Notes: generated from the sequence alone by a model not told the origin. Positions 13,430-13,561 are shown, numbered from the stretch's first letter. The stretch: DNA of 64,000 nt from Candidatus Nitrosotenuis sp. (GCA_004322465.1 SCVO01000083.1:6983-70982), one strand, 5' to 3'. Translations and numbers: made by a program.

Positions 13430-13528
13430 TTAGCACCCGCTAATCTCTAGGAGCATCTTGCTGTCAGAGCAAGTGTAGATTTGCGTTGAGATCCTGGACG
13501 AGTAGTCTGTTTTGCATTTTTGTTTCAT
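13430..13528 (-). CDS. 32-aa peptide MKQKCKTDYSSRISTQIYTCSDSKMLLEISGC at the head of the E2/JAB-E1 operon
   Basis: ATG 23-29 nt downstream of TTTTTTA TATA-like box (leaderless position); stop abuts the E2 RBS. Confidence 0.5.
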   Translation of the reverse strand: MKQKCKTDYSSRISTQIYTCSDSKMLLEISGC

Positions 13529-13561
13529 GATGTGGTAGTATACTGTCGAATAAAAAACAGG

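Follow-up and report, generated by a model that had tools for sequence, protein, structure and literature searches.

A 32-codon open reading frame positioned directly ahead of an archaeal E2-like gene is, on comparison of homologous loci, very probably a true, conserved protein-coding micro-gene and not a chance frame. The frame (hereafter sORF) lies in a 64,000-nucleotide stretch of DNA from Candidatus Nitrosotenuis sp. (GCA_004322465.1 SCVO01000083.1:6983-70982), which was analyzed as a whole and is referred to as the window. Its product belongs to no known family, and it heads a set of genes that includes an E2-like protein and a JAB-E1 fusion. The operon is a new archaeal variant of the Bub-like systems, with a new micro-protein. 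That micro-protein may itself be a miniature tag, but the N-terminal peptide of the E2-like protein is as good a candidate for the role, or a better one.

Position and layout of the small open frame

The initial annotation had described an unannotated 32-residue peptide ending in Gly-Cys, with a TATA-like box at leaderless distance from its ATG and a stop followed immediately by the ribosome-binding site of the E2 gene. All of these elements were recovered where they had been placed:

13549-13557, minus strand: T/A-rich TATA-like box TTTTTTATT, centered about 25 nt upstream of the sORF ATG
13430-13528, minus strand: sORF, an ATG and 32 codons in all plus TAA, encoding product P0001
13423-13429, minus strand: GGAGGTG, the ribosome-binding site of the E2-like gene, one base past the sORF stop

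Inspection of the 3' end of the frame reveals a Gly31 codon GGG at 13438-13436, a Cys32 codon TGC at 13435-13433 and the stop at 13432-13430, which adjoins the GGAGGTG site; six bases separate this site from the ATG of the E2-like gene at 13416. The sORF is the only ORF of at least 25 codons wholly inside the 184-nt gap. P0001 begins with a basic and polar half, continues with a QIYTC core and closes with hydrophobic residues that lead to Gly31-Cys32. The term unannotated is also apt: among 5.8 billion predicted proteins, a profile search picked up a single called homologue (P0048), and P0001 itself gave no match in Pfam or PADLOC.

Comparison across loci indicates a protein-coding micro-gene

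An open frame of 32 codons has no significance by itself in AT-rich DNA, and it is comparison, as judged at the sequence level, that supplies evidence beyond chance. The DNA 5' of each E2 start was read in 21 distinct homologous loci. An ORF of 27-35 codons occupies the same place in 14 of them, with stops that fall from 16 nt before to 7 nt after the E2 start. The initial annotation had held that the lack of an equivalent ORF upstream of E2 homologues would count against its reading; what the comparison returned was such an ORF in these 14 loci, together with signs of coding selection. The peptides sort into the following types:

T1 (window, L025, L006, L015, L018 and L014): QIYAC core and a hydrophobic tail ending in Gly-Cys
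T1b (L023, with an identical sORF in L024): otherwise unrelated in sequence, yet ending in Trp-Gly-Cys
T2 (L011, L009 and L021): G-T-L-F-x-C in common, ending in Gly or Gly-Gln
T3 (L012, L016, L026 and L003): Q-A-R-I-x-E followed by an acidic stretch, with no conserved terminal Gly

T3 was grouped with T1 on the basis of one short N-terminal stretch common to L016 and L025 only, and since that stretch is nearly identical in nucleotides, it may reflect recombination and not conservation at the protein level.

Coding selection is most readily seen in T1. Across the 17 aligned C-terminal codons of the six loci, the minimum numbers of changes at codon positions 1, 2 and 3 are 10, 11 and 28, respectively (chi-square p = 0.002). 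Each of the six invariant residues of the T1 core is encoded by at least two different codons (6/6), and pairwise synonymous differences number 86 in the sORF frame versus 11 and 29 in the two alternative frames. Similar synonymous variation was judged by eye to be present in T2 and T3. The terminal Gly-Cys is invariant in seven distinct sequences (T1 plus T1b), with codons that vary among GGG, GGA and GGT for Gly and between TGC and TGT for Cys. In alignment A3, L26, G31 and C32 are invariant, and conservation within the T1 and T1b peptides peaks at the terminal Gly-Cys. A degenerate DNA pattern written for the T1 peptide matched the window's own copy and nothing else in 401 genomes of the class.

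These patterns bear directly on the view that the sORF is a chance frame in a 5' untranslated region whose conservation derives from a DNA or RNA element. Frames of 32 codons are not rare in AT-rich DNA, and the gene is almost never called, as that view would have it. The third-position pattern and the frame-specific synonymous excess largely refute it, however, and the frame has been kept open in 14 loci despite indels. No Rfam family matched within 13200-13800, and the sORF region, folded as RNA, is no more stable than shuffled sequences (z = -0.29). We regard a chance frame as very improbable.

The same data weigh on the idea that only the act of translating the sORF matters, such that the frame serves as a cis-acting uORF that couples or regulates E2 translation and its peptide has no function of its own. 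A stop that always falls between -16 and +7 nt of the E2 start is in keeping with this idea, as is the probable position of the sORF as first cistron of its message (see below). What is conserved is nonetheless the amino-acid sequence, through synonymous changes, and not the open frame alone; E2 has a strong Shine-Dalgarno sequence of its own, the equivalent of which is kept in the T1 loci; and E2 sits behind other genes where the sORF is absent. A purely cis-acting role is therefore improbable. In all three T2 loci, the E2 start at the overlap with the last sORF codons is GTG or TTG and not ATG, which suggests, at the level of sequence comparison, that the sORF tail is the constrained partner.

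The promoter region of the sORF

The TTTTTTATT box and the sORF ATG are separated by 20 nt, and TTTTTATA-type boxes are found 20-40 nt 5' of the sORF start in nearly all homologous loci. Such spacing is in keeping with mRNAs that have a short leader or none. The probable start of transcription is the sORF start codon or a position just 5' of it, directed by a TATA-like box between repeats that differ among loci, and the sORF is probably the first cistron of the resulting leaderless or short-leader mRNA. Most loci have a divergent gene upstream, so that the box there cannot be the terminator of that gene; the HTH gene upstream in this window is co-directional, so that the T-run of the box could also be its oligo-T terminator. 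The additional features on this side of the window are as follows:

13562-13578, no strand assigned: perfect 8+8 palindrome GAGCTCAA g TTGAGCTC, abutting the TATA-like box; a candidate operator or terminator stem
13601-14050: neighboring HTH gene
15347-15715: TrmB-family gene

A direct or inverted repeat pair brackets the TATA-like box in the window, L025, L012, L018, L015, L023 and L026, and each locus has its own pair. These locus-specific repeats are probably operators for locus-specific HTH proteins encoded next door, from which we infer that the sORF mRNA is probably controlled by a locus-specific repressor.

The operon encodes an E2 fold and an intact JAB-E1 fusion

Downstream of the sORF, a block of co-oriented genes was identified and is followed by integrase-like genes:

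12772-13416, minus strand: E2-like protein, 214 aa, with a UBC fold at about residues 47-200
13306-13416, minus strand: N-terminal extension of the E2-like protein, residues 1-37, ending in H-T-Y-G and lying outside the UBC fold
11457-12770, minus strand: JAB-E1 fusion, 437 aa, with Pfam Prok-JAB at residues 23-123 and ThiF at 168-372
10858-11460, minus strand: CxxC-rich, zinc-ribbon-like protein, 200 aa, with no Pfam match
10650-10892, minus strand: 80-aa protein, probably membrane-spanning, with weak, sub-threshold Pfam matches to transmembrane families; its position is kept across loci
8468-10663, minus strand: HerA/DUF87-like ATPase, 731 aa
7720-8466, minus strand: conserved 248-aa protein of no known family, the last gene of the co-oriented block
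4923-6218 and 6410-7723: two integrase-like genes

The E2-like protein matched no Pfam family, including the Prok-E2 families. An AlphaFold model built from 18 homologues was obtained with medium confidence (pLDDT 71), and the PDB matches listed for it by Foldseek are almost all eukaryotic E2s, one of them the UEV Ube2V1 (probability ~0.9-1.0, E ~0.007-0.04). Alignment with VIA-align placed 2h2y first (Z 8.4), followed by UEV, RWD, BubB (9eav_D, Z 6.5) and Cap2. H143 (in GHWY) and C151 (in PCY) are invariant in 18 sequences and lie eight residues apart, as in canonical E2s. As modeled, the neighbor of the sORF is thus an E2 fold with an invariant His...Cys pair. An aromatic and basic F-W-R-F-W motif at the extreme C-terminus of E2 (12772-12790, minus strand) is conserved in most homologues and follows a low-confidence AlphaFold helix.

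The JAB-E1 fusion matches both the E1-E2 and the JAB models of PADLOC. In its JAB domain, the JAMM residues E29, H91, H93, S102 and D105 are invariant across 15 sequences and present the E...HxH...S..D motif. In its E1 domain, the nucleotide-binding glycines, R215 and two CxxC pairs are invariant in 15 homologues, and the adenylation domain is intact. Inspection of the crossover loop reveals no conserved Cys and an invariant Tyr, Y337; the invariant Cys residues of this region, C316, C319, C398 and C401, are zinc ligands. Y337 aligns two residues before the crossover-loop Cys of UBA5, which we take to be the catalytic C250 of PMC11601596, its numbering being inferred. Tyr337 of E1 together with Cys151 of E2 suggests, from residue conservation, a relay of mixed oxyester and thioester type.

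The initial annotation had proposed that JAB removes the terminal Cys of the peptide and that E1 adenylates the Gly so exposed. This proposal is supported in part: the enzymes that it calls for are encoded, with intact JAMM and ThiF domains and an E2 fold, and the Gly-Cys is conserved. JAB and E1, both intact by sequence, are the only two C-terminus-acting enzymes of the operon, and the conservation of Gly-Cys in T1 and T1b, where no other feature is kept as well, is what would be expected of a tail read by such an enzyme. A tail of Gly plus one residue is present in T1, T1b and T2 and is missing from T3. In a predicted complex of the E1 dimer with ATP and the sORF peptide, run without controls, the scores were 0.19 and 0.14 against a mark of 0.32, a result that speaks neither for binding nor against it.

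Gene order, distribution and host

The order E2, JAB-E1, ~200-aa protein, small protein, HerA-like ATPase and ~250-aa protein recurs in contigs that are long enough, and the 200-aa CxxC protein is found 3' of E1 in every locus that reaches far enough. Integrase genes follow the operon in several homologous contigs. The HerA/DUF87-like ATPase is one ORF of 724-747 aa in the window, L017, L006, L011 and L012, and is split at one point into ORFs of ~306-312 and 422-423 aa in L015, L016 and L009, where the gene lies ~2.7-4.9 kb after the E2 start. In L014, an extra 65-aa gene with a Pfam Prok-E2_E match (PF14462) is located downstream at L014:9915-10112, and the HerA-like gene of that locus is shorter (382 aa).

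Scanning of the operon proteins with Pfam found no beta-grasp Ubl family among them, and a search of the other operon proteins for a conserved C-terminal Gly found none. The C-terminus of the HerA-like ATPase (..VIG) was considered in this regard and rejected, as the Gly-rich tails vary.

The E2 family is present in 4 of 401 genomes of the class and in 7 of 401 genomes of the family, within two genera, and forms 25 representative clusters at 50% identity among 1.84 billion proteins. Records of the family that name Nitrosotalea and Nitrosotenuis comprise one from NCBI and two from GTDB. No relative of E2 was detected among IMG/VR viral contigs. The operon is located on a sporadically distributed, integrated or mobile element of Nitrosotalea-type ammonia-oxidizing archaea. 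No tRNA was found within 1-30000 of the window.

The first gene is a swappable cassette

Seven of the 21 distinct loci lack the sORF, with none further upstream, and their E2 and JAB-E1 are intact. Other genes occupy the slot:

L017:162-584, L005:5598-5996, L008, L019, L002, L022 and L028: gene for 133-140 aa in the sORF slot, six loci
L013:2217-3020: gene for 267 aa in the sORF slot, one locus

First-gene types are mixed across the E2 tree, with 10 changes needed where the minimum is 5, and one well-supported pair joins a T2 locus to a 133-aa locus. This intermixing indicates that the first gene is a swappable cassette, and together with the seven loci that lack the sORF it indicates that the core enzymes do not need the sORF. 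The 133-140 aa proteins end in ..EAA, ..EVA or ..GGN. Two genomes that appear nearly complete, G090 and G507, have the 133-aa variant. The model of the 133-aa protein is ferredoxin-like, with best matches to a phage SAM lyase (6zm9), PII and CutA; a Ubl identity for this replacement was rejected because the fold is not beta-grasp, and the slot is accordingly not a slot for modifiers as such.

About 170 nt of strongly conserved, apparently non-coding DNA lie 5' of the 133-aa gene in six loci of different genomes (L005 ~5420-5597, L008, L019, L002, L017 and L022). Neither a tRNA nor an Rfam match was found in this stretch; an attachment site, a regulatory region and a novel RNA are all possible.

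A second candidate peptide at the N-terminus of E2

The 37-residue extension at the N-terminus of E2 is present in 21 of 21 loci and in distant homologues, and S8, G10, L15 and G37 are invariant in 20 sequences. Its junction with the UBC fold is modeled at low confidence, with pLDDT below 50 at residues 32-34 and 37-39, and the extension itself is modeled as three short strands at low pLDDT. In 7 of the 21 loci (L016, L018, L009, L015, L012, L026 and L003) a frameshift or in-frame stop makes the extension a separate ORF, which ends 1-2 residues past the Gly in four loci and 19-20 residues past it in three. Stand-alone proteins of this kind, 38-56 aa in length (P0033-P0041), are also found among representative proteins.

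By analogy with the Bub systems, the extension has no weaker a claim to the modifier role than the sORF peptide, and the two are not mutually exclusive. It is possible, and we hold this tentatively, that the extension is the actual modifier, released by JAB after Gly37 and activated by E1 as BubA is, and that the sORF encodes an accessory micro-protein. The latter could then act as a regulator or pseudo-substrate in the JAB or E1 site, as an adaptor or as a Lys-bearing acceptor, forming part of the swappable first-gene cassette that tunes the system. Universal occurrence, invariant residues, a position outside the UBC fold with a low-confidence junction and natural separation into its own ORF all speak for the extension, as do the variability and exchangeability of the first gene; moreover, the JAB of the Type I Bub JAB-E1 fusion, BubCD, cleaves the modifier-E2 fusion BubAB experimentally after a conserved Gly, Gly229 (PMC11601596). 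Assigning the modifier role to the extension leaves unexplained, however, why conservation in the T1 and T1b sORFs is highest at the C-terminal Gly-Cys, and the site at which the extension is split off could simply be a domain boundary. Furthermore, 37 residues cannot form a beta-grasp, so that, as a modifier, the extension would lack precedent no less than the sORF peptide, which at 32 aa is also too short for this fold.

The two tails differ, being [IL]-[STV]-G for the sORF and [ST]-[YF]-G for the extension. No support emerged for paralogy or mimicry between the two peptides: profile-profile comparison aligned only K-H-T-Y-G of the extension with x-Q-I-Y-A of the sORF (probability 0.08%, E 0.64), a weak lead.

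Comparison with known systems

The closest counterpart is the Type I Bub ('6E.1') operon, which comprises BubAB, BubCD and BubE (PMC11601596; Iyer et al. 2006 row 6e, PMC1779556) and in which the crossover loop of the BubCD E1 has no Cys and relies on an invariant Tyr (PMC11601596). As in Type I Bub, JAB is fused to the N-terminus of a homodimer-type E1, the crossover loop has an invariant Tyr in place of a conserved Cys, the E2-fold protein starts with an additional piece whose last residue is a conserved Gly, a metal-binding protein comes next in the gene order, and the surroundings are mobile or defense-like, with HTH regulators nearby. The archaeal operon differs in that the N-terminal piece is only 37 residues long and is not a beta-grasp Ubl, that E2 keeps a catalytic-type Cys151 where the Bub E2 has an invariant Ser (oxyester), and that a further conserved micro-gene precedes E2, all in an archaeal host. 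DUF6527/BubE (PF20137) was not detected in nine window proteins (Pfam E <= 0.01) or in the 80-aa ORF (E <= 1), and BubCD was absent from the matches (E <= 0.001) of the E1 profile in a PDB sequence search.

Trimming of a short extension after Gly has precedent among sulfur carriers. The JAMM protein QbsD removes Cys-Phe from QbsE (GG-CF), and CxnE and CxnF behave likewise, preparing substrates for E1 (PMC5925218). In both pairs the JAMM protein acts ahead of adenylation by a ThiF-type E1, and in QbsE the residue after the C-terminal Gly is also Cys. These carriers are beta-grasp proteins of 70-100 aa that end in Gly-Gly and serve sulfur transfer with rhodanese and no E2, in contrast to the present 32-aa peptide with its single Gly and accompanying E2. 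CysO-Cys and Mec+ form a further case of a JAMM-trimmed precursor, in which the residue after Gly in the CysO adduct is Cys.

Type II CBASS is similar in that its E1/E2 and JAB proteins, Cap2 and Cap3, activate the C-terminal Gly or Ala of a protein that is not a Ubl and whose gene belongs to their own operon. Cap2 is an E2 fused to E1, JAB is separate and the substrate is the CD-NTase, whereas the archaeal operon has no cyclase or effector.

A comparison with MccA/MccB was raised in the initial annotation, where the peptide was suggested as a possible RiPP-like substrate. Among solved structures, the closest sequence relative of the E1 domain is UBA5 (2.6e-17), followed by MccB (2e-14) and, more distantly, PaaA (1.2e-5). 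The similarity of E1 to MccB is what speaks for that suggestion. In the MccA/MccB and PaaP/PaaA pairs, as here, an E1-like enzyme is accompanied by a short ribosomal peptide encoded immediately upstream, and in those pairs the enzyme works on the C-terminus or core of the peptide, MccB by adenylating a C-terminus; the likeness is confined to the E1 domain. The sORF product could on this basis be a precursor whose C-terminus is modified by the E1-like enzyme, possibly by cyclization between the activated C-terminus and a conserved internal Cys, to give a small-molecule or peptide effector and not a tag. Its precursor-like size, the conserved Cys that precedes the terminal Gly by 10-12 residues in T1 and T2, and the downstream pairing of an ATPase with a small protein that may span the membrane are consistent with such a route. 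UBA5 is nevertheless a better match than MccB, the internal Cys is missing in L023 and unconserved in T3, and an E2 with a catalytic Cys has no place in known RiPP routes. MccA ends in Asn, MccB has an N-terminal peptide clamp, and neither E2 nor JAB accompanies them; here the peptide ends in Gly-Cys, no peptide-clamp or RRE domain is present, the N-terminal domain of the E1 protein is JAB, and no maturation, export or immunity gene was recognized. A RiPP-like product is thus unlikely, to much the same degree as a purely cis-acting uORF.

Earlier surveys of archaeal Ubl systems reported no such set of genes (PMC2948915). Literature searches found no paper on this archaeal system or on a peptide-sized E1/E2 modifier.

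A proposed role for the sORF peptide

We tentatively favor the reading in which the T1 sORF peptide is trimmed by JAB and activated by E1 as a substrate of the cascade, either as a mini-modifier or as an activated peptide. In this scheme, the hydrophobic-x-Gly-Cys C-terminus would be a recognition tail for the two C-terminus-acting enzymes of the operon. The JAB domain would remove Cys32, the E1 domain would adenylate the exposed Gly31, and the acyl group would pass to Cys151 of E2, possibly by way of Tyr337 in the E1 crossover loop. From Cys151 the acyl group would be delivered to a target or to an intramolecular acceptor. The sORF peptide would work beside, and not instead of, the N-terminal -YG peptide of E2. 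Counting in favor of this reading are the coding selection on the sORF, the invariant Gly-Cys of T1 and T1b, the seemingly constrained T2 tail, the intact enzymes with the likeness of E1 to UBA5 and MccB, the JAMM precedents, and the finding of neither a Ubl family nor another conserved C-terminal Gly among the operon proteins scanned.

Several findings weigh against a substrate role and limit what stands of the original mini-modifier proposal. Conservation of a Gly at the sORF C-terminus, or close to it, is lacking in the T3 loci, a third of the loci (7 of 21) have no sORF at all, and the N-terminal extension of E2 supplies a second candidate. Viewed more broadly, it is conceivable, if rather doubtful, that this archaeal E1/E2 cascade tags with unstructured peptides of ~30-37 residues, be it the sORF peptide, the N-terminal -YG extension or both, that are matured by JAB and relayed from Tyr of E1 to Cys of E2.

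Implications for the family

To our knowledge, all characterized E1/E2 conjugation systems (eukaryotic Ub/Ubl, Caldiarchaeum-type, Bil and Bub) use a beta-grasp modifier, and CBASS activates a whole enzyme. The family described here keeps the enzymes of such a system with no recognizable Ubl and has two conserved mini-peptides with Gly-proximal ends. It adds a hybrid of Cys-type E2 and Tyr-type E1 to the oxyester-only chemistry of Bub. The sORF is, in addition, an example of a conserved micro-gene overlooked by gene callers. If either peptide is a substrate, minimal E1 recognition and the origin of ubiquitin-type tags would become testable with synthetic peptides. Should tagging with peptides prove true, these would be by far the smallest modifiers known for ubiquitin-type chemistry, and may offer a possible picture of what tags were like before, or became after, the recruitment of the beta-grasp fold.
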